57,451 bases of DNA, taken from positions 1-57,451 of IMG/VR virus record IMGVR_UViG_3300037206_000024; one strand, given 5' to 3'. The notes under the pieces are model-generated. The model ran no database searches and was not told where the DNA came from. It saw nothing but the letters and a program-made list of their open reading frames with translations. The position numbers were made by a program, and so were the translations under genes. Positions 3,428 through 27,538 of the stretch are shown piece after piece (within the stretch, counting starts at the first letter, position 1; every line of letters begins with the position of its first letter). This stretch comes from a virus (lineage: Duplodnaviria > Caudoviricetes).

Positions 3428-6019
3428 TTATCCTCCGCATGTGCCGCCCTTTCCGCTAATTTCACAAATGTCCTGCTGCTCTACAAAGACTTCACCTACG
3501 TGTTTCACCGCTGTCGCCCATTTTATAGGTGTGAGAGGTTGTCCTGAGCGCGCGCCGTCCGGGTAGGTAGTCAATCCCCTGAGTTGTGGAAGGTACTTGA
3601 TGAATGTCTTACCAAACTTCTGCACGGTATCTGAGTTGTTGGCTTCCGTCCCCCACTGAGGCAAATTAATGGTACTTGATATAGCATGATCTACGTACTT
3701 CTGAACATGAGCTTGAAATGACAGCCTACGCTCAACGTCCTCAGCTAACACATAAGCGTCTTCAATGTTCTCTGGGTTAACTCCATTCTTCTCGATCAAT
3801 CGCTTAGCTGTGGGGTCCAAAACATACTGGTAATTCCACACGTTTCCTTTGATGTACCTACGTTTGAATGCAGCGCAGAACAAGGGTTCAATACCAGTTG
3901 AAGTTTCCCCGAGAATTCCTATGCTTCCCGTAGGGGCTATAGCTCGGGTTTTTACGGGGCAGGATAAGTCCCATTTCTTCGCGTATTGCTCAGCGTACTT
4001 AGTACTGTCTGAGTATAGTTCAAGATACTTATCTAAGTCAGTATCTGGACCATACCTCTTCCCGTTGATTAGTAACCATTCGTGAATGCCCATGAGACCT
4101 AAGCCAAGCCTACGATTCTTGGTTCTTACTGTGTCTACCTTGGAGTAAGGTACATCTGAGTACACAGTCCCTGCGAGTAGGAATGCTGTGGCACATTCTA
4201 CTACAGCCTTCATTTCTGTGATATCGGATATTCTAGCAAGGTTGATAGATCCTAAGTTACAAACATCTGAGTCATCTTCGCTAGTTAATTCTGTGCAATT
4301 AGAAATAATTACTCCTTCCGCCATAAATGAGTGCTCTGGCAGATTTACATCACAGCAGAATACATCTTCAAACCCAGCGTCCTCCACAGATACAACTTTT
4401 ATTGCCGCAGCTCTGTAGGATGTACAAGCTTTTATTTGTAATCTGCTGGTAGGGATGATATTAGAAAACCTAGTAACATAGGCAGTTTGCACAGTGAGCA
4501 TGTATCCTTGAGAGTTCCCGTATGTAGAAATACCAGCAGTTGATATTCCTGAAAGTATACCCAGCTGTTCTAGTAGCCTGCGCACACCTACGAGAAACTC
4601 ATAGTGCTTGGAGGCCAACCTTACTCTGTTCTGTGCTTCAAAATAATTACCGTCCGCATCGAATAGTCCCGCAACAAAGCTTTCTTGAAAATCCCTGTCA
4701 CAAGAGTAAACATCATGTGGAAATACGGCTTTATCACGATTCAAAAACAAACCATCGTTTCGAGTATATGCTCTAATGTAGCCACGACCGTCTTGCCGAT
4801 TTACAGAAGTAAACAAATCTGTAGGAAATCCCCCTACACATGCTTTTGATTCTTCTGTGCAAAATGTAACTTCTGCCCGTGGATACTTTTTATTAAAAGT
4901 ACCATCTCCATAAATATAGCCAAGAGCATACCCCCGACCATCGAATTTTCCTTTAGATTCGTTAGCCCACATTTTTACTTCAAGAGGAGAGCCAACACAC
5001 AACTCTCCAGCGGCCACCTTAACTCCTGTACTTAAAATAAATTCATGAGAAGGATCGCATACTATTTCTCTTCCACCTGTCATCTTTACACGTACAACGG
5101 GTACACTATCTCCTGTCTTTTTAAACATGACATTTTCAGCCCAATTTTTACCTGTCCAAACTGTTACTAGCTCTAATACTATATCACCTACACGTTGGTA
5201 GCCTTCGTTAGTGTAAACATAAGTATTAGCAGAAACAGGGGCGTTCCTTAGTGTTTCCTTTCTGTTTTTTCCTGTGTCGATGCTGAACCCGGGCTCCCCC
5301 GTCTTGAGCATACGCTCCATGACTGTCCAATAAACCGCACTCGCATGGGAGTTGTGAACATGTTTCTCGTCATGATATGCCTCGAAGAATTCATCGTCAA
5401 GTTGCACGCTGATGTTAGTCATGTCCAGTGTGGCAGGAAAGTTGAAGTCCTTGGCCTTCATGCTGCGTACTTCTGGTGTCCAGTTCTTCATTGTGATAAA
5501 CTTCATTACGTCTGGGTGTCGCCACGACAAGCCTGCCCACAGTGCGGACCTGCGGCTTCCTCCCTGCATTACTGCTCGCCCCAGCTCATTCGTAGCTTGC
5601 ATCAGGCTCAGCGGCCCGGTAGCGAAGCCGCCTGTCTTGCGTATGAGTTTGCCTTCAGAGCGAATATGGCTGTAGTCAGTTCCGATTCCGGCCCCTGTCA
5701 TCAACCCCATGGCATGCTTGTGCATGTGGTCTGCCCACCCTTCGCGACTGTCTTCTGCACGAAACATGAGGCAGTTGTTAACTTGATGCAAGGGGCGTCC
5801 CGAGGCATATAAATATCTTCCACCGGGGATAAATTTGCGTTCTATGATGTATTGCTTGGTTTGCTCGATGAGGGACTTAGGTGCGCCCACAGATTTCAGC
5901 ACAGTTCGGCTGACGCGTTCTGCTACTTCCTCCCATGTTTCTTTGCTTCCGTCTTTACGCTCGTGGGAATATTTCTGGAGCAGAATCGCTTCAGCGAAAC
6001 TGCTCATACTGCTCTTCAT
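3428..6019 (-). CDS. nrdJ: Class II (AdoCbl-dependent) ribonucleotide reductase containing an intein
   Basis: PGGRYL, NNC, GGSRRSA, GEPG, NA|CTE, VCNLGSINL, RRLGLG, APTG motifs and C-terminal Cys pair; no small-subunit gene nearby; 549 aa after intein removal. Confidence 0.85.
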   Translation of the reverse strand: MKSSMSSFAEAILLQKYSHERKDGSKETWEEVAERVSRTVLKSVGAPKSLIEQTKQYIIERKFIPGGRYLYASGRPLHQVNNCLMFRAEDSREGWADHMHKHAMGLMTGAGIGTDYSHIRSEGKLIRKTGGFATGPLSLMQATNELGRAVMQGGSRRSALWAGLSWRHPDVMKFITMKNWTPEVRSMKAKDFNFPATLDMTNISVQLDDEFFEAYHDEKHVHNSHASAVYWTVMERMLKTGEPGFSIDTGKNRKETLRNAPVSANTYVYTNEGYQRVGDIVLELVTVWTGKNWAENVMFKKTGDSVPVVRVKMTGGREIVCDPSHEFILSTGVKVAAGELCVGSPLEVKMWANESKGKFDGRGYALGYIYGDGTFNKKYPRAEVTFCTEESKACVGGFPTDLFTSVNRQDGRGYIRAYTRNDGLFLNRDKAVFPHDVYSCDRDFQESFVAGLFDADGNYFEAQNRVRLASKHYEFLVGVRRLLEQLGILSGISTAGISTYGNSQGYMLTVQTAYVTRFSNIIPTSRLQIKACTSYRAAAIKVVSVEDAGFEDVFCCDVNLPEHSFMAEGVIISNCTELTSEDDSDVCNLGSINLARISDITEMKAVVECATAFLLAGTVYSDVPYSKVDTVRTKNRRLGLGLMGIHEWLLINGKRYGPDTDLDKYLELYSDSTKYAEQYAKKWDLSCPVKTRAIAPTGSIGILGETSTGIEPLFCAAFKRRYIKGNVWNYQYVLDPTAKRLIEKNGVNPENIEDAYVLAEDVERRLSFQAHVQKYVDHAISSTINLPQWGTEANNSDTVQKFGKTFIKYLPQLRGLTTYPDGARSGQPLTPIKWATAVKHVGEVFVEQQDICEISGKGGTCGG
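4298..5239 (-). mobile_element. Intein with LAGLIDADG endonuclease (314 aa), N-terminal Pro
   Basis: Inserted between TLRNA and catalytic CTE; ends HSFMAEGVIISN|C; LGYIYGDG and AGLFDADG motifs; visibly more AT-rich than the exteins. Confidence 0.88.
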
Positions 6020-6237
6020 TGGATTTCTCTTTCTTGTTCGTTGTGTATGAAGTCTTGTTCAAGCACAAATGTGCTGTGTTTAGCTGGGCAGATAAATCTG
6101 AAAAATTGTGGCCTAGTCTGAACCGCAGCACGGTATGCTTGGGCGTTACACCAAGCACAGTTGAGATATGGCGTAATATCCTTGGTGTTCATGTAGTCTC
6201 CTTTACTTCTGCCAGTGGTCTGATATGTGGTACTCAC
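6016..6237 (-). CDS. Small Cys/His-containing hypothetical protein
   Basis: CAWC...CPAKH; couples polA and nrdJ; true start may be the second Met. Confidence 0.5.
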   Translation of the reverse strand: MSTTYQTTGRSKGDYMNTKDITPYLNCAWCNAQAYRAAVQTRPQFFRFICPAKHSTFVLEQDFIHNEQEREIQ

Positions 6238-8665
6238 TCGTCATTTTTACCTTTGAAATAACCTCAGCTCCAGCCCTGAGAAATGCATCAGACACAAGCT
6301 CGGCTACTTCCTTGCTGTGTCTCTTAGGGCTCAAAATTTGAAGCTCATCGTGGACCATGCTGAGCAGCTTGGCATTGTACTGAGGAAGAACGTGCCAGAG
6401 GTATGGTTTACCAGAAGCATCTGCGCCAGCTCCCATCGCGCGTTTAACAAGCGAAGCGTTGGTCCCTTGCACCCCATGATTCTTGCCTCTGCGTCCGATG
6501 CTTCCCCACAGGCCACGCATAGCTGACTTGACCTCTGCTTCGGATGGTTCCCTGTGTGTTAGTTTGTATTTTTCATCAACTGTGGGGTCTTTAAGGTACG
6601 CTGCTTTGAAGTTGAAAATGTTTTTCTCTTGTGCTTCTTCACTGAGTTCCAATCTATCCGCGTGTTCGTCCTTGTAATATTCTTTTGCTGTCTCCCATGT
6701 CGGAGCGGGCAGCAAACGTCGTCTTCCGTACATGTCTCGTGCTTCATTTAGACGCTGCGCTTGTTCTCCTGCCTCCTTAAGGTATTTCCACACGAATGGG
6801 AAAGCCTTCTCGTGCTGACGCATGAGTTCTTTTGCTGCGTCTACAGTGATGCCAAGTTCATCAGCTAAGGCATCAGGGCCCCCGCCATAACAAAGCAAAA
6901 AGTTAATCGCCTTGGTATTTTTACGCAGCTTCTTATGCTCTTTACATTCACATTTCTGTCTCTCAGGTTTACCCTCTGCATCTAGCTTGAAGTAAGCGCA
7001 GCCGTCCTCAGTGCCCGCTTTCCATTTTTCAGACTCTAAAATCTCGGTTGAAACCGAGTGGACATCTTGGTTGCTGTTAAAAGCCTTAATCCACGACGGC
7101 TCATTTGAAAGCTCTGCGATGATACGCAACTCACAACCTTCAAGATCAATTGTGATTATATCATAACCTTCTGGAGAAAGATAGTCTGGAGGATTAGTGA
7201 CAAAGCATTCTCTGACATCATCTTCAGCAGGTAAATTTTGTGCGTTAGGCTTAGACGAGCTTGTCCTCCCAGTTTCCGCTTCGAGTTGTGAATACACACA
7301 ATGTAACCTGCCATCCCACGGATGTAAAAACCCTTCTTCCTTGCACGCCTTGGTGACCCAAGTCTGCGTCCATTGAAGTCCGTATGTAGAGATAGTTTTC
7401 CCATCTTTCCTGAAGTTTCGTAAAAGATGAATCAAGGGACGATCATTGAACTTCAGGAGATGCTCGTCGGCAACACTCTCTAGGCTCTTCAGCCCTTTTA
7501 TTTGCTTGAGAGCAGAAAGCAACTGTTCGTGAGAGTCGTAATTTAGAAATGCCTCACCTGCACACTTCGGCAATGCAGCTTTCACTCTGGTATTTTGCTT
7601 GCTTAGTTCGGAGTATGCCTTGCGTGCATCGGCCTTCTTGGCCAACCGCGCATCCTTCAACATTTTTAATTGTGCACGTAGTTCGGCCTTCTTGGCATTG
7701 TCGCGTGTGCTGCGTATCTCGTCAGCTTTTGTAGCTTCCTCTGGGGTGAGCAGTTCAAACCCCTTGCGCCAGTTGTCTTCACGGCGGGCGAGTTCCTCAA
7801 AGTCTATCTGCTCAGTTTTCCTGCCCACAACGGGCACAAAGGTCTCGTCCAAAATCTTAAATGCGGCGTTACGACGTTCTGTCACTGCATCTATGCGCTT
7901 CTTCCAGCGCTCACAGTCAATTCTCTGCCCCGTAAGATGCATGTCTTGGAAGCTGCCTATGGCGTCGTTCTCAATTTGTACTGTGGTGAGTAGTTGGTCT
8001 GTTGTCAGCTCACGAAGTTGATGCTCGCGCATTGACAACGGCATTCTGGTGTCAAACGCTGCGTAGGCAATCATCTCGGTCGTCAGCGGCCCATCGAGCG
8101 TGAACTTGTCCTGTTGTTCTTTATCTACGAGCAGCCCAAATCTCCTCGCTACAATGGACGCCATGGAAAACTCAGTCATGCGCTTCAGGCTGATGTTACC
8201 TGCCTGAATGACTCTTTCAGCGAGATCCGTTGAGAAAACATGCCACATGCGCTGCCCGAAGTTCCACCAGAATACCATATACTCAAACGACAGGTTTTGT
8301 CCCACCTTTAGCACAGCGTTGCTGCAGATCGCTGGGGTGAGAATATCGAACACAGGTTTGTAGCAGGGATCGAGTGTGTAGAGACCTTGGGATTGACTCA
8401 AACGCTCGGGGGACCCTGCGAAGGGTAGGAGGTCGATCACGAACTGCTTGGCTTTGTCCCCAATTTGGATTGTACGTACTTTGCGAAAATAGAAATCGCC
8501 ACACCAGTTGGTCTCTGTATCAAGGCCCACCAGCCCTTTCGTTGCAAGTTTTTCTGCCACAAAACTTGACAATTCGGGCAACCCGGCATCGGGCGTCACT
8601 AACGTAATGTTCATTGGAGGGCTCAGCGTGCTGAGGTCCAGCGGCTTCAATGTTGATGTACCCAT
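6203..8665 (-). CDS. polA: DNA polymerase family A with 3'-5' exonuclease domain
   Basis: GLDTET (ExoI), YAAFD (ExoIII), TGRTSSSKPNAQN, motif A DLEGCELR, motif B KAINFLLCYG, motif C VHDE. Confidence 0.93.
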   Translation of the reverse strand: MGTSTLKPLDLSTLSPPMNITLVTPDAGLPELSSFVAEKLATKGLVGLDTETNWCGDFYFRKVRTIQIGDKAKQFVIDLLPFAGSPERLSQSQGLYTLDPCYKPVFDILTPAICSNAVLKVGQNLSFEYMVFWWNFGQRMWHVFSTDLAERVIQAGNISLKRMTEFSMASIVARRFGLLVDKEQQDKFTLDGPLTTEMIAYAAFDTRMPLSMREHQLRELTTDQLLTTVQIENDAIGSFQDMHLTGQRIDCERWKKRIDAVTERRNAAFKILDETFVPVVGRKTEQIDFEELARREDNWRKGFELLTPEEATKADEIRSTRDNAKKAELRAQLKMLKDARLAKKADARKAYSELSKQNTRVKAALPKCAGEAFLNYDSHEQLLSALKQIKGLKSLESVADEHLLKFNDRPLIHLLRNFRKDGKTISTYGLQWTQTWVTKACKEEGFLHPWDGRLHCVYSQLEAETGRTSSSKPNAQNLPAEDDVRECFVTNPPDYLSPEGYDIITIDLEGCELRIIAELSNEPSWIKAFNSNQDVHSVSTEILESEKWKAGTEDGCAYFKLDAEGKPERQKCECKEHKKLRKNTKAINFLLCYGGGPDALADELGITVDAAKELMRQHEKAFPFVWKYLKEAGEQAQRLNEARDMYGRRRLLPAPTWETAKEYYKDEHADRLELSEEAQEKNIFNFKAAYLKDPTVDEKYKLTHREPSEAEVKSAMRGLWGSIGRRGKNHGVQGTNASLVKRAMGAGADASGKPYLWHVLPQYNAKLLSMVHDELQILSPKRHSKEVAELVSDAFLRAGAEVISKVKMTSEYHISDHWQK

Positions 8666-10574: not shown

Positions 10575-10651
10575 CAGAGAGTGGTGTAGTCTGGTAGCAT
10601 CCGTGGTCTGGAACCATGTGGCCGCAGGTTCAAATCCTGCCTCTCTGACCA
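10575..10651 (+). tRNA. tRNA-Pro(UGG)
   Basis: Cloverleaf: CAGAGAG/CTCTCTG acceptor, C1-G72, A73, anticodon loop TCTGGAA, TTCAAAT T-loop, encoded CCA. Confidence 0.9.
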
Positions 10652-10654
10652 TGT

Positions 10655-10730
10655 TGCGGGGTAGTAGCGCAGGACAATACGCGAGCCTCATAAGCTCGAA
10701 ACGCGAGTGCAAATCTCGCCGCCGCAACCA
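10655..10730 (+). tRNA. tRNA with CAU anticodon (Met/Ile2-type, atypical)
   Basis: CGAGC-CTCATAA-GCTCG anticodon arm; T arm GCGAG-TGCAAAT-CTCGC; encoded CCA; G6.G67 mismatch. Confidence 0.75.
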
Positions 10731-10994
10731 AATCCTAAAAGTTCTACGGCCATCAGACGCTTAGCGGGTGGTGAGGGGTCGCCTCGGTAGCGACTCCGTA
10801 GCCGTTGAAGAAGACTCACCCTGTGTCACCCTGTGTGACCTGTGCTGGTGAGACTGCGGGATGCGATACCCGCTTAGCGGCGTAGCCATACGCCTTGTGC
10901 GCACAGAATGCTGGTTTGCTACCAGCGAAATGGCATAGAGGTCTTTGGTAGATTCTTTCCTCGCATGCAAATGAATCTCCAGCTTTTAGAAAAT

Positions 10995-11068
10995 GGGCTG
11001 TTCGTCTAATGTGAGGACTTTTCCCTTGCACGGAAACAACGGGAGTTAGACCCTCCCACGGTCCACCA
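10995..11068 (+). tRNA. tRNA-Ala(UGC), atypical T-loop
   Basis: GGGCTGT/ACGGTCC acceptor with G3.U70; TTTCC-CTTGCAC-GGAAA anticodon arm; encoded CCA. Confidence 0.82.
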
Positions 11069-12652: not shown

Positions 12653-13075
12653 ATGCCGTACGCAGATCCAGATGTAAGTAGAGAGTATCACACTCGGAAA
12701 TCAGCAGAGTGGGCTAAGAATCACCCAGAGAAGAGGGAAAGAATACGCAAGAAGCACTGTCAAACACTAAAGCACAAAATATCAAAAAGAAAGTGTGTGC
12801 TAAAGAGCAAGGGCTGGACCCCAGAGTCCTACGCTGCAGCCCTTGTAACGCAAGAGTACCGATGTGCTGTATGTCTTGTACTGTTTGATTTGAGATTAAA
12901 GCAAGGAAAGGGAGCAGCGTGTGCCGACCACGACCATCACACGAATAAATCCAGAGGAATTCTGTGCTCAAATTGTAACCTTCTCTTAGGCCATGCGATG
13001 GACAGCGAGGAGATACTACTTAAGGCAGCTGCCTATCTCAGAAAGCATAAAGATGCCTCGAAAAAAGATCGTTGA
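12653..13075 (+). CDS. Endonuclease VII-family homing endonuclease
   Basis: CAVC...DHDH...RGILCSNCNLLLG...AAAYL; overlaps the terL start. Confidence 0.82.
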   Translation: MPYADPDVSREYHTRKSAEWAKNHPEKRERIRKKHCQTLKHKISKRKCVLKSKGWTPESYAAALVTQEYRCAVCLVLFDLRLKQGKGAACADHDHHTNKSRGILCSNCNLLLGHAMDSEEILLKAAAYLRKHKDASKKDR

Positions 13076-14969
13076 AGAAAAAGCTCGCCCGCCATATCTA
13101 AACGCGGACGGCACTCTGGAGATATCAAAGATATTTGAGTTTCAGCCTAAGCAGACAGAGCTGCTTCAAGTGCGCACCAGAGATGGAGTGCCTTATATAA
13201 TGCCGATAGCCCCCCAATGCCTAAGCGTTGGAGGTTTTCGCTCAGGAAAGACAGTGGGAGTTCTGATGTACTTTGTCATGAACTACTGCTTGGCATTTGA
13301 GAACTGTGACATCCTAATCCTTAGAAGGACATTCAAAGAGTTGGAGTCCGGCTGCATAAAGGACGCTCTTACGTTCATACCTCCAGAGATTTACAACTAC
13401 GACCAAACGAAACATTGCTTGACATTCAAAAATGGCTCACGTATAGTTTTTGGCCATTGTCAGAACAATAAAATGCGGGATTAAAAAGTCAGTCCCCTCA
13501 CTCAGAGATGAGTGTTGAAGAATCGAGAGAATTCAGGGAAACACTCGAAAGAGTCAATCCTGAGCCGAGCGCATAAAAATCATGCGAAGGTGCAACGATC
13601 ATCCCGTCGCTGGGAGTAGGGAACAGTGTTCCCGAAGCACTCGACATCTGAAAAGATGATGATATGATCTGGACTTGCTGGTGACAGCAAGAGTTTGGAT
13701 GGAAACGATCCAAGCATAACATAATCGATTGAACAATATCTCGGTCAAGCGTACTGTGCCATTCTCATTGATGAGTGTGGACAGTTCTCACCTGATGCAT
13801 GGATGATGCTATACGCACGTAATATAGTCAACGCGGCTTGTAAACCCAATGTGCATGGGCACTTTCCAATCCCGTGTGTCTGGGGCTGCACTAACCCGCT
13901 CGGTCCTTACTACGAATTTTACCGTACGGTATTCGTGCAGAAGGAACCCTTTGATAAACCCGAGAATGCGAAGCGAGACAGCAACGGCGCATGGTGGGTT
14001 GACTCCAATGGGGAATGGCTCAACATCTACGACCCCTCGTTGTACGCCTACCAGCGTTCGACAGCCATGGATAACCCTAAGTTTCTCGCAAGAGATCCCG
14101 GGTTTCTAGCGCGCATGAACAGTATGCCCAAAGCCAAGAGAGATAAAATGCTGCTTGGATTGGATGGGGCTGTTGAGGGACAGTACTTTTCAAACTTCGA
14201 CCCTTATGAACATGTGATTGATCTTCGTGAAGACCCCGAAGCTATCATTTGGCAATCTTATCAGCCAGTGTGGGGGGCGCAAGACTGGGGAGTTGGGCAC
14301 TATAACGCGGCTTATTTATTCACCAAAGCATTGGTTAGAACCATTGGTAATGAGTACAAAACGAAGACCGTATGCTTCGCAGAAACCGTGCTTCAAGGTG
14401 GAAAAACGCACAAAGAATGGGCAGCGATATTCAAACGCATGTGTAAACTGCCCAACGGTGAACCAGCAATTCCAAAATCGATATTCTTTTCTCACGAAAA
14501 GTTTTCTAAGCAGGTCACTGGGCACACACCGGCTGATGAATACTCAGTAGAACTTAGAGCTTTAGGGCTTCCTCCGGTAACCCGTGCAGCAGCGGCAGCA
14601 GGTGATCGTGTGGGATCTGCATCAATGGTTTACAACATGTTGTCCAACGGAGAACTGGTCATACTTGACACCTGCAGGGATATCATCAACACGTTTCCTA
14701 CATTGATGCGTGATCCAGATATGATGGACGACGTACTCAAAGTCAACACTCGTGGAGACGATGCGTGGGACGCCTTTCGCTATGGGATTTACGGAATGTA
14801 TAAGTCACGCAGAAAACCAGAGATAATCACAATTGAAGAACATGCCAAAAATTTGGACCCTCTTGCAGGTTGGTTTTACAGGCAAAAGATGCTAGCCAGT
14901 CGCAAGAATGAAAATACACCCTTTGTTCAGGCCGAGCAACCCGTTTGGCTAGGAAAAGGTGTATACTAA
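13053..14969 (+). CDS. terL: Terminase large subunit, spliced (exons 13053-13481 and 13728-14969; 556 aa)
   Basis: Walker A GGFRSGKT in exon 1; splicing gives ...NNKMRD|IEQYLGQAYCAILIDE (Walker B); TNP coupling motif, QDWG and DDAWDAFRY nuclease motifs. Confidence 0.9.
13482..13727 (+). mobile_element. Group I intron (246 nt, no ORF) in terL
   Basis: P1 GGGAU/GUCCC with U.G at the 5' splice site; core GAAUUCAGGGAA...AAUCCUGAGCCGAG...GCAACGAUC...GAUAUGAUCUG; terminal G 13727 restores frame. Confidence 0.9.
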
Positions 14970-22837: not shown

Positions 22838-23072
22838 TCAAGGAGCCCGTGTGGCTCCGCAGTACTCTGATGTGCTTCCAAGGCACGACGTACGTCAGGG
22901 TACTACGGAGCTACATCTAAACCTCTCATGCCGACTTCCAGAATGGTCTCGAAGACTCTTAAACTCGACAAGGAACAAGGGATGAAAACAGTATGACTCA
23001 GCGTTAGCCCAGTTGACCCTTTAGAAAGGTCTGCTACGTGGGACTTCCGCAACACAAGAAAGAAACAATAGT

Positions 23073-25526
23073 ATGCCTTTACTCGAAGCAGCTGTTGAAG
23101 CAGTTGAGCTTGACGCCTTTGCGAAAGAGATCCCAGATCTCGTTTTTCATGGCACCACAGGCTACAGCTTGTTCAAGGCTGAAGCAACAAATGTTCCCGT
23201 GTCGAACCAGTCTAACGCTGGCGGCACCGTGCGAGCATCGTTCCGTGTGCCGTTCCGCGTGCAGGCTGGCGCGGCAATTTCGCAGGGAACCGGCAACGCC
23301 GATTCCATGGGTCGCGGTACGGGCTCGCAGTGGGCATCGTTCGCGTTGGCTCCCGTGTACCTGTTCAACGTCTGCGAAATTTCGTGGCTTGCTCAGGCTT
23401 CCACGGACTCCAAGCAGAAGGGTCTGTTCGCCGTTCAGTCCAAAACTTTAGCGGCTGCTGTCAGATAACACAGCGACACTTGACTAAATCGGTGAAAACC
23501 TCTATAATAGAGACAATACCGAGGAAAGACAGAATGTCTTATCAAACAAAGCTTGCATATCTCGCAGGTTTCTTCGATGGTGAAGGCTCGTTCTCAATAT
23601 GCAGAACCCGTTCCACCCTCAGAACCATGGCTGATGGAAGCAAAAAGAAATACGTCGTTTACAAACTGTGCGTATCCTGTACCAACACAAACAAAGAAGT
23701 GCTGGACTGGATGGCTTCCAACTTCGGAGGCAAAGTGTACATGAGTAACCAAGAGAATAGAAACCCAAAGTATCAGCCCCGTTATGGTTGGGTAATCAAC
23801 AACAACGAGGAAAGGGAACGTTTTATTCTTGGCGTACTTCCTTACTTGAAGGTAAAAGCAGAGCAAGCAAAGATTGCTCTTGAATTTATCCGCTTGTATA
23901 AGCAAGAAGATGTAGAGGAGAAAAGGAACGAGCTTAGGCATAAGCTTCAGGTTCTTAATCACAGCTACAGACTTCGTTCTGAATCCGTAGAGACTACACG
24001 TCAGGCACCTGAAGAAGGTGAAGATATAGTCCGATCTGCACAGTGATGTGCAGAAGCTGACAGAAATGCTCAGCTTTTGTCAGAAGTATGTAACAAACTT
24101 CTTTCAAATAACAAATTGTAAAGCTCAGGAAATGAAGAACTCTCTCGACGCCGCAATGCAGGGCATCGAAGGTCTCATCAATGGCGATGGCTCGGGCATG
24201 ATCGATCAGATCCCCGCAGCGGCTGTCATTACCACAGGCGCGGCATCCAGCATCGCTGGCATGAACGTCGCAGTGGCGTTTACGGATCAGCAACAGGTCA
24301 ATTTCTACAGCACGGGTGGTGTTCTCCGCGCTGGTGGGCCTGCGACGATCTCGTACTCTGACGGCCCCAGCAACACGCTGTTCTTCAGCACCAACTTGGC
24401 CAACATCATCGGTCTGGCTGTCACAGACTTTGTTGTAGTCAACGGTGCCACGTACGGTGCAGGAAATTCCCTCTTGGGCATCCGTGCTTGGGACGTGAAC
24501 TCCAACACCGGCACTATCGCTGGTCTGAACCGTGCGACGTACCCCGGTCGTTTGTCTACCCCCACCATCAACTTGGGTGGAGCGGCAATCACCCCGGGCA
24601 TCGCTCAGCGCGCTGAGGTTCTCCTCGGACGTGCACTCGGTCCCGATGCAGAGAGCATCAAGTCGGGCATTTGGTACGGCCCGCCTGAGCAGGCTTTCGC
24701 TCAGAGCAACCTGATGTATAATGTTCAGATTGCGAATGCTCAGGAAATCAAGGGCGACAAAACCCTCGACATGAGCAAGAAGTATTTTTCGGATTAACAA
24801 AATAGTCCCTTCGCACAGAAATGTGTGAATGATAACAGAGAGAATTCATGGAAACACCCGTAAGGGTCAATCATGAGCCGAGCCGCTTTACAATCGGAAG
24901 GTGCAACGACTATCCCGCAAGGGAGTAGGGTCCAAGTGGACTCGAAGCACTCTGCATCCTGAAAAGGATGATGATATAGTCTGAGCTTGCAGGTAACTGC
25001 AAGAGTTCGAATGGAAACGATTCGAGCGCAACATAACTGACTTTTGGTGGACGTAAGTATCACAAGAGCTGGACAGCAATCAACAATCGCATGGACCTGT
25101 TGGTACTTGACAACTGGTACATTGGGGAATTGAGCCCGCTGGAACTGTATGACTTTGGTGGAGGCAACGTGGTCGCACCCGTGCCCGATATCAATGGTCA
25201 GGCAGGAACATCGAGCTACTTGACCTCGCACATGTTTGCTTACAACACCTGCTTTTAAGAAAAGTTGGAGCAGAATAAATTTCTTCTGATTGACTCGAAC
25301 GCTGAAATGCCAACGAGGCGGAACCCGCAAGGGACCGTGAGAGACTAAGCGAAGAAACGCCCGCGAGGGTGATGCAATAGTCCGTGCTCATGGGAACAAA
25401 ACCATGAGAGTACAGCAGAAATGACTGTGCCACTTACCTTGTAAGTGTAACAAACCAAGTAACTTAGCCAACGCCGCCCCGCGAGCTGGTTTATATGTCC
25501 AGAACGCAGCGGTCCCAACAGTCTGA
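23073..25526 (+). CDS. Major capsid protein, spliced from 4 exons (23073-23434, 24119-24794, 25040-25254, 25460-25526; 439 aa)
   Basis: Exons total 1320 nt in one frame: ...GLFAV|KAQEMKN...KYFSD|TFGGRKY...YNTCF|NLANAAPRAG...PTV*; size and position after scaffold fit a P22-like coat protein. Confidence 0.82.
23435..24118 (+). mobile_element. Group I intron 1 of MCP gene (684 nt) with LAGLIDADG ORF
   Basis: P1 GCCGU/GCGGC (U.G); P10 CUUUA pairs exon-2 UAAAG; AAAUCGGUGAA, GUAGAGACUA and GAUAUAGUCC core; terminal G 24118. Confidence 0.88.
23534..24046 (+). CDS. Intron-encoded single-motif LAGLIDADG homing endonuclease (170 aa)
   Basis: LAYLAGFFDGEGSFSI motif, FGGKV, LPYLKVKAEQA; GAGG RBS. Confidence 0.9.
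   Translation: MSYQTKLAYLAGFFDGEGSFSICRTRSTLRTMADGSKKKYVVYKLCVSCTNTNKEVLDWMASNFGGKVYMSNQENRNPKYQPRYGWVINNNEERERFILGVLPYLKVKAEQAKIALEFIRLYKQEDVEEKRNELRHKLQVLNHSYRLRSESVETTRQAPEEGEDIVRSAQ
24795..25039 (+). mobile_element. Group I intron 2 of MCP gene (245 nt, no ORF)
   Basis: P1 GGAU/GUCC; core closely similar to the terL intron; terminal G 25039 restores frame. Confidence 0.9.
25255..25459 (+). mobile_element. Group I intron 3 of MCP gene (205 nt, no ORF)
   Basis: P1 CUGCUU/GAGCAG; P10 AAGUUG pairs exon-4 UAACUU; GAGAGACUAA / AAUAGUCC P7 elements; terminal G 25459. Confidence 0.85.
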
Positions 25527-25555
25527 CCCTAAAGGACTTAGACTGGTTTTACAGT

Positions 25556-25584
25556 TTGATTTGTACTGTGACGACGGTTATAGT
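25556..25584 (+). promoter_or_regulatory. Possible sigma70-like promoter for the downstream endonuclease
   Basis: TTGATT-17 bp-TATAGT. Confidence 0.5.
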
Positions 25585-25590
25585 ACACTA

Positions 25591-25648
25591 AGAGTAGGGA
25601 GATCTGCTGTCACAGGTCTCCCGCTCTACCTTGACAGAGGAGAACAAA
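25591..25648 (+). ncRNA. RBS-overlapping pseudoknot element, copy C
   Basis: P2 GAGTAGGGAGATCTG/CAGGTCTCCCGCTC; loop CTGTCA (25607-12) pairs TGACAG (25632-37) adjoining GAGGAG. Confidence 0.72.
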
Positions 25649-26212
25649 ATGAGAGTAGAAGGAAACCCAAAACCACAATATGCGAATGTGCCTGCGGAAG
25701 ATAAGCAGGCGGCATACAGCAAAGCGTATTACGAGAAGAACAAAGAAGCGCGGCGAGAAGACTCTAAGGCACGTTCTGCTGTATTCAGAGCAGAAAACAA
25801 GGAAGAAGCCAAACGTCGTGCCAGTGCTCACTGGCACTCTAAGTCTCCCGAAGAGAAAGAAAGATTGGGAGCAGAACGTAGACTCAAAGGAAGATTTAAG
25901 AGGAGCACAGAATGGTACAATGAAACCCTAAAATTACAGGGTGGGCATTGTGCGCTCTGTATCGTTGTACCAACTGATAGACGACTGCATGTTGACCATG
26001 ACCACGCGTGCTGCCCTTGCATTGATACTCGGTACACGTGTGGCAAATGTGTCAGAGGATTACTCTGTGACGGATGTAACACACGCATAGGCTATCTGGA
26101 GGGTCTCCTTAAAGAAGCGGATCCGTTCGTACCCAAAGAAGGTACGTGGACATCCCTAGCATTGCAATACTTGACTCAGTACGACACCGAGAGGTGTGGA
26201 GGGACACGATGA
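25649..26212 (+). CDS. Endonuclease VII-family homing endonuclease
   Basis: CALC...LHVDHDH..CP...CGKCVRGLLCDGCN; basic helical N-terminus. Confidence 0.85.
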   Translation: MRVEGNPKPQYANVPAEDKQAAYSKAYYEKNKEARREDSKARSAVFRAENKEEAKRRASAHWHSKSPEEKERLGAERRLKGRFKRSTEWYNETLKLQGGHCALCIVVPTDRRLHVDHDHACCPCIDTRYTCGKCVRGLLCDGCNTRIGYLEGLLKEADPFVPKEGTWTSLALQYLTQYDTERCGGTR

Positions 26213-26812: not shown

Positions 26813-27538
26813 ATGACATTAGCAGGGGGAGACGTGCTCGCGGCAGGCGGGACGAAAGCAAATTTTGCAGGAGCAGGCGGGGAAGTTACCGACTTTGAAC
26901 AGGACTTCATATTCATGGGAGTCGAGGAACTTTGCAAGAAATATGCGCTGTCTCAATCAGAGTACGATGTGTACGCAGCTTCTAGGCTGGATGGCACCAA
27001 GCTTCCCGACCTGAAGGATATGAATCATAAGGAATCCCTAGATGTGGGATTCAGCGTAAAGGACAGCCGCAGGAACTACCTCAGCGAAGCTACAGAAGCT
27101 ACAGCCGTGGTGCCCAAGGTTTCCAAGTACCCAGCCAAGAAATATGGCACTGGCATGCCCATACTGGATAGAGTTCTGGTGAAACGCGTGGAAGATGACC
27201 CAGATCTAGAGACCTTAGAAGACGGCTCGGTACGCAACAAGAAAACAGGGTTTATCGTCCCTGCCAAATACCGCCAGCACACCAACTCAGGTGTCGTACT
27301 CGCAATAGGCACCGCAGTGGTCATGGGTGGCGTCAGGATGTCCCTTAGCGAATTTGTAAGGCCCGGGGATCGTGCAGTGTGGGGGGACTACAACTCCGAA
27401 ATGTTCCCTATGGACTTCAAGAAGGCCAAGGCACTTTGCGATTCTCTGCAAATTGACCATGAAGAGAGCGATGAGCCCTTTCGCTTGGTTCGAGTGCAGG
27501 ACATCAGACTCGTAGAGCCAGAGGTGAAAAATGAGTAA
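26813..27538 (+). CDS. GroES/Cpn10-like co-chaperonin with N-terminal extension
   Basis: PILDRVLVKR...GFIVP...SGVVLAIG...VRPGDRAVW...RLVRVQDI match the GroES fold. Confidence 0.75.
   Translation: MTLAGGDVLAAGGTKANFAGAGGEVTDFEQDFIFMGVEELCKKYALSQSEYDVYAASRLDGTKLPDLKDMNHKESLDVGFSVKDSRRNYLSEATEATAVVPKVSKYPAKKYGTGMPILDRVLVKRVEDDPDLETLEDGSVRNKKTGFIVPAKYRQHTNSGVVLAIGTAVVMGGVRMSLSEFVRPGDRAVWGDYNSEMFPMDFKKAKALCDSLQIDHEESDEPFRLVRVQDIRLVEPEVKNE

Follow-up and report, generated by a model that had tools for sequence, protein, structure and literature searches.

The locus at positions 23073-25526 raises the question of how a phage could make its capsid protein from a gene for which no full-length open reading frame exists. 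The window, that is the whole stretch of 57,451 nucleotides that was analysed, probably derives from a tailed phage of roughly 100 kb that inhabits peat and permafrost soils; among cultured phages, those of Tunturiibacter (Acidobacteriota) are its nearest relatives.

Structure of the interrupted gene

A full-length capsid ORF is absent from the ORF list, where the gene is represented by three pieces at 23073-23468 (131 aa), 24048-24797 (249 aa) and 25091-25258 (55 aa). Joining of four segments of the plus strand gives 1320 nt, i.e. 439 codons followed by a single terminal stop; the intervals removed are 23435-24118, 24795-25039 and 25255-25459, with lengths of 684, 245 and 205 nt, respectively. 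Exon 1 (23073-23434) contains codons 1-120 and two bases of codon 121, as defined by frame, length and uninterrupted homologs, and its boundary was also recovered by a spliced-alignment program. Exon 2 (24119-24794) extends from the last base of codon 121 to codon 346, exon 3 (25040-25254) covers codons 347-417 and two bases of codon 418, and exon 4 (25460-25526) goes from the last base of codon 418 to codon 439, after which the TGA stop is found; two of the three junctions fall within a codon (phase 2). This arrangement, with its three intron lengths and its 439-aa frame, had been proposed in an earlier note on this DNA and was recovered here at the same positions. The note had also described exons 3 and 4 as absent from the ORF track, which is correct for exon 4, with its 22 codons, and not for exon 3, where an internal ATG gives a 55-aa ORF at the 30-aa threshold.

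Exon 2 matches 328 database proteins at E<=1e-3, and the full-length ones among the matches listed have 395-459 aa, so that the agreement of the spliced frame with its homologs is far beyond chance. Uninterrupted homologs from metagenomes are about 440 aa long and the 439-aa spliced frame is collinear with them. Lack of collinearity with intron-less homologs was one of the outcomes by which the earlier note would have been refuted; comparison with 19 database homologs gave zero gaps at all three junction columns, and the 22 C-terminal residues encoded by exon 4 align with the C-termini of uninterrupted homologs. One database protein, which is itself 439 aa long, is 98% identical to the window over exon 2, while a tblastn search of exon 2 against 50,697 phage records gave zero matches. 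Inteins were also considered as an origin of the inserts and are ruled out, since the inserts are out of frame and all of them have a stop codon at, or close to, the first bases.

Identity of the encoded protein

The AlphaFold model was calculated for this 439-aa database protein from a 65-sequence alignment including distant relatives, with a pLDDT of 83.8 and a pTM of 0.79; an earlier run on 36 close sequences (pLDDT 53.3) was discarded. Comparison of the model with the PDB by Foldseek gave 233 matches at E<=0.001, and all those listed are capsid proteins of phages, of a gene transfer agent or of a PICI. The best match is the capsid protein of cyanophage A-1(L) (7f38_A, E 7.5e-11, TM 0.54/0.64), followed by that of SU10; Mic1, T5 and HK97 (1ohg_A, E 9.8e-7) are also found among the matches. 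At the sequence level, a profile reached the same A-1(L) chain 7f38_A at E 1.7e-5, which is the sole sequence link to a known capsid, and the PDB sequence search using the first, shallow alignment gave no match. The predicted fold and its matches support the identification of the gene product as an HK97-fold major capsid protein, which the earlier note had assumed and for which it had suggested structure prediction as a check.

A protein with the HK97 fold could also have a different role, for instance as a second shell or as an encapsulin-like protein. This would agree with the finding that neither the exons nor four full-length homologs match any Pfam or PHROG capsid family, and that nearby portal, protease and scaffold genes were not identified by name. 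However, the listed structural matches are all to virus-type capsid proteins, and the terminase large subunit gene is located about 8 kb upstream on the same strand, with the capsid gene itself in a run of large unannotated ORFs. In addition, an ESM Atlas feature search pointed, as a lead only, to one cluster with the SU10 capsid family in 11% of its members; no other match to this protein, and no second copy of the capsid gene, is present within the 57-kb window of a genome of probably about 100 kb. We regard a role other than that of major capsid protein as very unlikely.

The three introns

In all three introns the upstream exon ends with T and the intron with G, and the T pairs with a G of the guide sequence, producing the U.G pair of P1; both features had been reported for each intron before. 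Assignment of the inserts to group I introns, also made in the earlier note, is supported by an Rfam match for intron 2, by a sub-threshold core together with a LAGLIDADG ORF for intron 1 and by covariation for intron 3.

Intron 1 (23435-24118, plus strand; 684 nt) is an ORF-bearing insert of group I type, recognized by its Rfam 3' core, P1 and P10. Against Rfam RF00028 it scores for the 3' core only (23814-24053, 33.1 bits, E 5.1e-6; the curated threshold is 50 bits), because the ORF separates the two halves of the core. P1 is formed by the exon end GCCGU and by GCGGC, giving 5 bp with the U.G pair, and a P10 of 5 bp is located directly 5' of the guide. ORF-bearing homologs of this intron occupy the identical codon position in the related loci L042, L044, L052, L059 and L062/L063; compensatory changes between the window and L062 were noted in P3, P4 and P9, by eye and uncounted, in a 6-row alignment. 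The ORF (23534-24046, plus strand) encodes a LAGLIDADG homing endonuclease of 170 aa, matching Pfam PF00961 over residues 10-98 (E 1.8e-7, 32.4 bits, cut-off 23.1) and phrog_5046 (E 1.5e-24); the presence of one domain in 170 aa suggests a protein of the homodimeric type. The 3' end of the ORF overlaps the ribozyme core (P7-P9), with the stop codon placed in the P9 loop by the Rfam alignment.

Intron 2 (24795-25039, plus strand; 245 nt) is an ORF-less group I intron, whose first bases are an in-frame TAA. It matches RF00028 with 74.9 bits (threshold 50) and E 3.2e-17, the match covering 24785-25003. Its P1 is made by the exon end GGAU and (UA)GUCC, 4 bp with the U.G pair, and P10 has 5 bp. Over 238 nt it is 77% identical to another intron, which interrupts the window's terminase gene; both match RF00028 along its full length and both have extra hairpins between P7 and P3, which we take to be typical of a phage group I subgroup.

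Intron 3 (25255-25459, plus strand; 205 nt) is also ORF-less, has an in-frame TAA at intron bases 2-4 and gave no match to Rfam at E<=1. The exon end CUGCUU and GAGCAG form a P1 of 6 bp with the U.G pair, and P10 has 6 bp; as in intron 1, the P10 strands of introns 2 and 3 are located directly 5' of the P1 strand. Intron 3 belongs to a compact family of group I type, recognized by strong covariation of the P3-P9 helices, including the P3/P7 pseudoknot: in 47 copies, over 50 pairs in 9 helices, 93.1% of cells pair, vs 31-39% in slid-partner controls, although the use of the window copy to derive the structure gives it some advantage over these controls. Changes on both sides occur in 39 of the 50 pairs, and the covariation score is 0.540 vs 0.07-0.09 for slid partners; none of 500 shuffles reached the observed score.

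The match between guides and exons extends beyond the window. Among 78 non-redundant capsid-gene introns of the clade, the mean score of P1 plus P10 is 10.1 with the introns' own flanks vs 5.9 with the flanks of other sites, and the same ribozyme core recurs at different sites, each time with a matching guide sequence.

These properties bear on the possibility that the capsid protein is made in pieces and assembled after translation, as in the ribonucleotide reductase of Aeromonas phage Aeh1, whose gene is split by an endonuclease gene and is not spliced. Exon 1 and exon 2 do each lie within an ORF with a possible start codon; however, two junctions split a codon, exon 4 is a stretch of 22 codons with no start codon, the only start of exon 3 is an internal ATG, and the inserts keep a ribozyme structure and exon-matching guides, which an unspliced insertion would have no reason to do. 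Assembly from separate pieces appears highly improbable.

Evidence from DNA and RNA libraries

In one DNA run, two stretches of the window, 22900-25248 and 25289-25700, are reproduced by collinear contigs with zero differences, and 14 DNA runs from 10 studies contain 78-100% of sampled words, nine of them 97-100%; thus, the interrupted arrangement is no assembly accident. An assembly chimera of different strains would find some support in the break of these contigs around 25219-25318, within the repeated intron-3 family, but it is barely conceivable in view of the exact agreement on both sides of the break, of the nine runs with almost all sampled words and of related contigs having introns at the same positions.

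In contigs from RNA libraries position 23434 is joined to 24119 in all three runs, and 24794 exactly to 25040 in one of the three; in one run, what follows position 25254 in a contig reads as exon 4 with synonymous differences. Exon-joined contigs were not found in the DNA of the one DNA run compared. The joined RNA contigs differ from the window, with 21 other letters in 510 bases (X17) and 34 in 362 (X16) for exon 1, 12 in the last 97 bases of exon 1 for X15, and 2-13 in 431-669 bases for exon 2; they come from slightly different strains and are therefore no proof of splicing. At junction 1 they show C as the first base of exon 2, a letter shared by 8 of the 9 intron-less DNA alleles examined and by none of 10 alleles with an intron at the same site, and they may be transcripts, or carried-over DNA, of sibling strains without introns. 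Cover gaps in the RNA contigs and differences in depth between exons and introns were left out as evidence. A metagenome scan gave 80 loci, and five of them were compared (L081, L084, L099, L114 and L125): L099 is 81% identical to the window exons, the gap-free comparison is out of register for L081, L114 and L125 (26-50%), and L084 is of different length.

The divergence of the joined RNA contigs from the window's allele, together with the failure of introns 1 and 3 to reach the Rfam threshold, would also suit inserts that are group I by descent, at least one of which no longer splices, leaving a dead capsid copy in a defective or helper-dependent phage. This is unlikely: P1, P10 and terminal G are intact in all three introns, the core of intron 3 agrees with the invariant positions of its 47-copy family, the exons contain neither frameshift nor stop and share 98% identity over exon 2 with the 439-aa database protein, and the intron-bearing form is present in those 14 DNA runs of 10 studies, which would be hardly achievable for a dead genome.

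Proposed splicing and mobility

Considering the exon/intron boundaries, the collinearity with homologs, the capsid fold and the sequence and structure signatures of the ribozymes observed here, it is very probable that the capsid gene is interrupted by three group I introns and that its pre-mRNA loses all three to give the capsid protein. As for splicing, its efficiency and intron movement, we infer the following scheme. A guide near the 5' end of each intron would pair with the last bases of the upstream exon in P1, where the U.G pair would mark the cut, while the bases next to the guide would form P10 with the beginning of the downstream exon; the P3-P9 core would perform two guanosine-initiated transesterifications, finishing at the terminal G. 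On unspliced RNA, the stops at or just inside the start of each intron would halt the ribosomes. Intron 1 would be mobile via its own LAGLIDADG endonuclease, whereas the ORF-less introns 2 and 3 probably spread by recombination with intron-bearing relatives, possibly aided by reverse splicing or by a trans-acting nuclease, perhaps the product of an endonuclease VII-like gene downstream.

This free-standing ORF (25631-26212, plus strand) starts 104 nt after the capsid gene and encodes 193 aa of the endonuclease VII family (Pfam PF02945, E 6.1e-14). Of 23 relatives with C-terminal introns, 20 have a homolog of this ORF on the downstream side of the capsid gene, compared with 8 of the 27 that have no such introns, counts that ignore relatedness; other homologs are located inside capsid-gene introns, in L078 and L034. 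We infer that the endonuclease VII-family protein may serve the ORF-less introns as a homing nuclease supplied in trans.

Introns in the capsid genes of the clade

Capsid-gene introns are present in 27 of 56 full-length relatives and absent from the other 29, indicating an insertion polymorphism; they occupy about 16 positions, with up to six introns per gene. The spliced-alignment census is unreliable for the first ~35 codons, where 4 of the 78 predicted introns are without the U.G pair in P1, and a 2066-nt 'intron' in L030 and L035 has a weak P1; sites 15-21 are therefore counted loosely. The near-universal T and G at the census boundaries are not independent evidence, because the program gave them a small bonus. 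The earlier note had regarded introns in structural genes as much less common than those in genes of DNA metabolism, a view that needs to be qualified, since a capsid-gene intron was already known in the Cluster J mycobacteriophage LittleE (Pope et al. 2013, PMC3706429) and such introns are common in the window's clade.

The compact family of about 200 nt shows a particular distribution. The 47 copies found are all within the capsid gene, where the spliced alignment gives them 16 site labels, and none occurs in the capsid-gene flanks, up to 4 kb on each side. In L033 two introns with almost identical cores are 23 nt apart in one gene, and intron 3 of the window most resembles an intron that another contig has at a different codon. 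This site pattern fits repeated transposition to new positions and does not agree with simple inheritance of introns that stay at fixed sites; the introns could have moved by reverse splicing, or through capture by the trans-acting endonuclease VII-like nuclease encoded beside the gene. We tentatively suggest, as a possibility that is still rather doubtful, that in this clade of peat and permafrost phages the compact ORF-less group I introns form an expanding family with a preference for the capsid gene, and that they would relocate by changing only the guide sequence. If this is true, a highly expressed structural gene would be a nursery for intron spread.

Comparison with known systems

Classical phage group I introns, such as those in td, nrdB and nrdD of T4 and in the DNA polymerase gene of SPO1, are textbook residents of DNA-metabolism genes. 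They have in common with intron 2 and with the terminase intron a P1 with U.G pair, P10 and the terminal G, but here the host gene is a virion-structural one. In the family of intron 3, P4-P6 is much reduced and P2 is absent, and the family escapes the Rfam model. Three group I introns in one gene are reportedly found in the Staphylococcus phage Twort, in work of Landthaler and Shub from 1999; the number is the same as in the window, while gene and host are different. Zeng, Bonocora and Shub, as well as Bonocora and Shub, are said to have described in 2009 a collaborative homing, in which a free-standing endonuclease targets the insertion site of an intron. The ORF-less introns beside a free-standing nuclease gene recall this system, a likeness that rests here on co-occurrence counts in which relatedness is ignored.

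Thus, one capsid-gene intron, in LittleE, and three introns in one phage gene, in Twort, were known before, and what is new is the clade-wide picture. LittleE's single intron has so far been regarded as a curiosity. In the clade, one and the same gene has from none to six introns, distributed over about 16 positions, which amounts to a natural series; a compact ribozyme family that goes unrecognized by the standard Rfam model is also present. In the window, as the earlier note pointed out, the late gene with the highest expression would depend on three splicing events; relatives would need up to six, and ribozyme efficiency would therefore directly limit virion yield. The series makes it testable whether introns arrive at new sites by homing, by reverse splicing or through trans-acting nucleases, and also whether intron load has an effect on competition between co-infecting phages. 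Moreover, capsid genes of this kind will be overlooked or truncated by gene callers and in surveys of soil viromes that use capsid markers.

A close known case is the LittleE intron, which, in the part of the published account used here, shares with the window's introns the U at the exon end and the G at the intron end, contains a LAGLIDADG-like ORF, as intron 1 does, and is polymorphic in its presence among relatives (PMC3706429). Conversely, that account describes one intron, of 819 bp and with the ORF on the opposite strand, instead of three and of up to six in relatives of the window; splicing was proven in LittleE by RT-PCR and N-terminal protein sequencing, whereas here it is predicted from sequence, and the two capsid proteins are unrelated in sequence (PMC3706429). 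A different likeness is offered by the gut 'Jug' jumbo phages, for which the sections of the report drawn on here describe many short ORF-less group I introns, of ~206 nt on average, in essential genes, with a terminase gene in two or three fragments (Sci Adv 2026, PMC12880540). Those phages have genomes of 360-402 kb and live in the gut on Bacteroides or Phocaeicola, while the window's phage, of about 100 kb, comes from soil; the targets named in the same sections are terL, nrdD and DNA polymerase (PMC12880540), whereas in the soil phage it is one structural gene in which the introns are concentrated.

Exon structure and collinearity of the capsid gene

It is very likely that the region at 23073-25526 is an HK97-fold capsid gene carrying three group I introns, all of which are predicted to splice from the pre-mRNA. 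No long ORF is present on this stretch of the plus strand, where the ORF list contains only the pieces 23073-23468, 24048-24797 and 25091-25258. Joining four plus-strand exons, at 23073-23434, 24119-24794 (225 aa), 25040-25254 and 25460-25526 (the last 22 residues), gives 1320 nt, corresponding to 439 codons followed by one terminal stop; the inserts measure 684, 245 and 205 nt, and T is the last base of every upstream exon, G that of every insert. The exons and insert sizes proposed in an earlier note, which had interpreted this region as a major capsid protein gene split by three group I introns, are exact.

A search with exon 2 retrieved 328 database proteins at E<=1e-3, with lengths of 395-459 aa among the 120 matches listed. 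In a protein alignment of the joined product with 19 homologs all three junction columns are free of gaps, and the 22 residues of exon 4 match up with the C-termini of all 19; a search that used no word index yielded 89 cluster representatives at E<=1e-3, with identity down to about 30%. The spliced product is therefore collinear with its uninterrupted homologs, as the earlier note's reading demands.

Identity of the product and source phage

Neither Pfam nor PHROG assigned a family to the exons or to four full-length homologs, and tblastn with exon 2 gave no match in 50,697 phage records. Structure prediction was performed on a 439-aa database protein, 98% identical to the window over exon 2. 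Built from 36 close sequences, an initial AlphaFold model was of low quality (pLDDT 53.3); the model obtained with 65 sequences, including distant relatives, reached pLDDT 83.8 and pTM 0.79. Foldseek found 233 PDB matches for it at E<=0.001, and every one of those listed is a capsid protein from a phage, a gene transfer agent or a PICI. Among them are cyanophage A-1(L) (7f38_A, E 7.5e-11), SU10, Mic1, T5 and HK97 itself, so that the HK97 fold expected by the earlier note is borne out on this homolog. 7f38_A was also matched by a sequence profile (E 1.7e-5). An ESM Atlas feature search provided, as a lead only, a cluster with the SU10 capsid family in 11% of its members. Since the listed structural matches are exclusively capsid proteins, the profile hits 7f38_A, a terminase large subunit gene lies upstream and no second capsid-gene copy was found within the 57,451-nt window, we conclude from the model and its context that the interrupted gene encodes the major capsid protein.

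The runs containing the stretch are peat and permafrost metagenomes, related contigs extend up to 100-114 kb, and the DNA polymerase shares 40% identity with those of Tunturi_3 and Tunturi_4, phages of Tunturiibacter (Acidobacteriota). A ribonucleotide reductase large subunit and a family A DNA polymerase are encoded on the opposite strand (3428-6019 and 6203-8665, both minus); three separate parts of the reductase match its PHROG family, a pattern that might reflect an intein or some other inserted element. Three tRNA matches (55.4, 47.8 and 35.3 bits, the last covering only part of the model) cluster at 10575-11065 on the plus strand, between the modules for replication and packaging.

Introns 1 and 2 and the terminase intron

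Intron 2 (24795-25039, plus strand) matches the Rfam group I model over its full length with 74.9 bits, against a threshold of 50, and carries an in-frame TAA at its start. Over 238 nt it shares 77% identity with an intron of the terminase large subunit gene (13482-13727, plus strand), a 246-nt group I element scoring 55.9 bits against the same threshold of 50, with an in-frame TAA at its start and a G at its end; the terminase exons, 12993-13481 and 13728-14969 (plus strand), are in frame across the join.

Intron 1 (23435-24118, plus strand) bears an ORF, and its 3' core (P7, P3', P8, P9) is found by the Rfam model below threshold (33.1 bits, E 5.1e-6); the core's 5' half is located 500 nt upstream, ahead of the ORF. 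The latter (23534-24046, plus strand) encodes 170 aa with a LAGLIDADG domain above the Pfam cut-off; the final ~60 nt overlap P7-P9, with the stop codon in the P9 loop. ORF-bearing introns occur at the same codon position in five other related contigs (L042, L044, L052, L059 and the pair L062/L063), and compensatory changes between the window and L062 are visible in P3, P4 and P9 of a six-row alignment, as judged by eye.

Intron 3 and its compact family

Rfam gave no match to intron 3 (25255-25459, plus strand, 205 nt), even at E<=1. BLAST against 80 related viral-contig loci returned 63 similar stretches, and 47 distinct copies were aligned, showing strong conservation of the core and helices with visible covariation. 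The proposed structure has group I topology: P3 closes over reduced P4/P5 and P6, P7 is pseudoknotted with P3, and P8, P9 and two more 3' hairpins follow, with no P2. Across the family 93.1% of the cells are paired, compared with 31-39% when partners are slid by 1-3 columns; 39 of 50 pairs have changed on both sides, and the covariation score is 0.540 versus 0.07-0.09 for the slid controls, a value reached by none of 500 shuffles. The structure was drawn from the window copy, which somewhat favors the observed values over the controls; given the effect size and the many double changes, the sequence evidence for a group I-type fold is nevertheless convincing.

In all 47 copies of the alignment (A2) a covarying hairpin after P9 is capped by a 9-nt loop with almost no variation (CAGAAAUGA or close), at about 25416-25424 in the window; the loop is also present at 24069-24076 in the ORF-bearing intron 1 type. 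Its conservation in both suggests a tertiary contact.

In all three window introns a guide within the first 20 nt pairs with the upstream exon end, placing a U.G at the splice site, and the bases just 5' of it pair with the beginning of the exon that follows (P10). For 78 non-redundant introns in capsid genes of the clade, the mean summed P1+P10 score is 10.1 with their own flanks versus 5.9 with those of other sites; no U.G P1 was found in 4 of the 78, all in the poorly resolved N-terminal region.

Exon junctions in RNA libraries

Six metatranscriptome runs contain 23-29% of the sampled words, and contigs of three of these and of one DNA run were examined. The join of exon 1 to exon 2 occurs in RNA contigs of all three runs, and the 4-7 letters replaced at the join can be read as synonymous changes in the opening codons of exon 2. 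The exact 24794-25040 join is also present in one RNA contig, and one proceeds up to 25254 and then into letters readable as a synonymous exon 4 variant. The DNA run yielded only the interrupted form. The joined contigs may also be transcripts, or carried-over library DNA, of sibling strains without these introns, because they differ from the window in exon 1 (21 of 510 bases in contig X17, 34 of 362 in X16, 12 letters within the last 97 bases in X15) and in exon 2 (2-13 letters per 431-669 bases), and because at junction 1 they have C as the first exon-2 base, as do 8 of 9 examined intron-less DNA alleles and none of 10 alleles with an intron at this site. The RNA libraries also contain pieces of intron 1 and of boundaries between exons and introns, and one boundary contig combines a variant exon end with the matching change in the intron 3 guide, a compensatory change in P1. 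The RNA result is compatible with splicing but not decisive. The earlier interpretation is supported for the capsid protein and the group I introns, splicing itself being a prediction.

Distribution and possible movement of the introns

A purpose-written protein-to-DNA spliced aligner was run on the 80 loci, giving 74 non-redundant genes, 56 of them full length. Introns are predicted in 27 of these 56: nine genes have one, seven have two, six have three, three have four and two have six, and the other 29 have none. Insertions fall after about codons 6, 10, 15-21 (poorly resolved), 33, 38, 100, 120, 147, 346, 371, 388, 410, 411, 413, 416, 417 and 425, with four or five distinct points in the eight codons 410-418. 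An intron at the window's intron 1 site is present in 10 other non-redundant genes, and 9 others have one at its intron 3 site; among the genes in the census, its intron 2 site was seen in the window only. At threshold, Rfam recognised only 7 introns in 19 intron-rich loci; therefore, standard annotation would overlook most of them.

Six capsid-gene introns each (196, 235, 696, 731, 685 and 201 nt) are predicted in the near-identical contigs L062 (987-5059) and L063 (1783-5855), whose first two exons comprise just 6 and 9 codons. Rfam group I matches of 62-78 bits in L023 (5524-5735), L042 (4970-5186) and L066 (5879-6094) begin at or just past the last capsid-gene codons, which suggests an intron either at the gene's extreme 3' end or in the spacer beyond; the window lacks one at this place.

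The 47 copies aligned for the intron 3 family are all situated inside the capsid gene, and none was found in flanks of up to 4 kb. In a core tree same-site introns cluster only partly (26 label changes required; minimum 15, shuffled mean 33.3); the nearest relative of window intron 3 is a codon 411 intron of another contig (92% identity, weakly supported), and locus L033 contains two introns 23 nt apart with almost identical cores. Partial clustering and such core likeness suggest that introns have repeatedly moved between sites, or exchanged cores, with their guides being retuned.

A free-standing ORF of the endonuclease VII family (25631-26212, plus strand; Pfam E 6.1e-14) follows the capsid gene at a distance of 104 nt. 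Of 23 relatives that have C-terminal introns and sufficient flank, 20 carry a homolog downstream of the gene, versus 8 of 27 without such introns; these counts ignore kinship, and the contrast is weak within the close clade. In L078 and L034 homologs are inside capsid-gene introns. A role as trans-acting homing helper may be taken as a lead only. The following 241-aa ORF (26813-27538, plus strand) has a weak C-terminal match to the GroES co-chaperonin (phrog_3188, E 3.6e-5) and homologs downstream of the capsid gene in many relatives.

Comparison with known systems

The predicted mechanism in the window capsid gene is ordinary group I splicing; what is unusual is the setting, with three introns in a capsid gene, an intron hot spot in the clade and a compact ribozyme family unrecognised by Rfam. 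Phage Twort reportedly has three introns within one gene. On several introns in one phage capsid gene, the literature outside subscription journals yielded only the LittleE work, its citing papers and giant-virus reviews. In gut Jug phages, one report describes about 18.5 short group I introns per genome, with terL, nrdD and polymerase genes split (PMC12880540). In the mycobacteriophage LittleE the capsid gene contains one intron, demonstrated by RT-PCR and protein sequencing, which is most likely group I and has a LAGLIDADG-like ORF (Pope et al. 2013, PMC3706429). Compared with that single intron, as described there, the capsid gene of the window has three.
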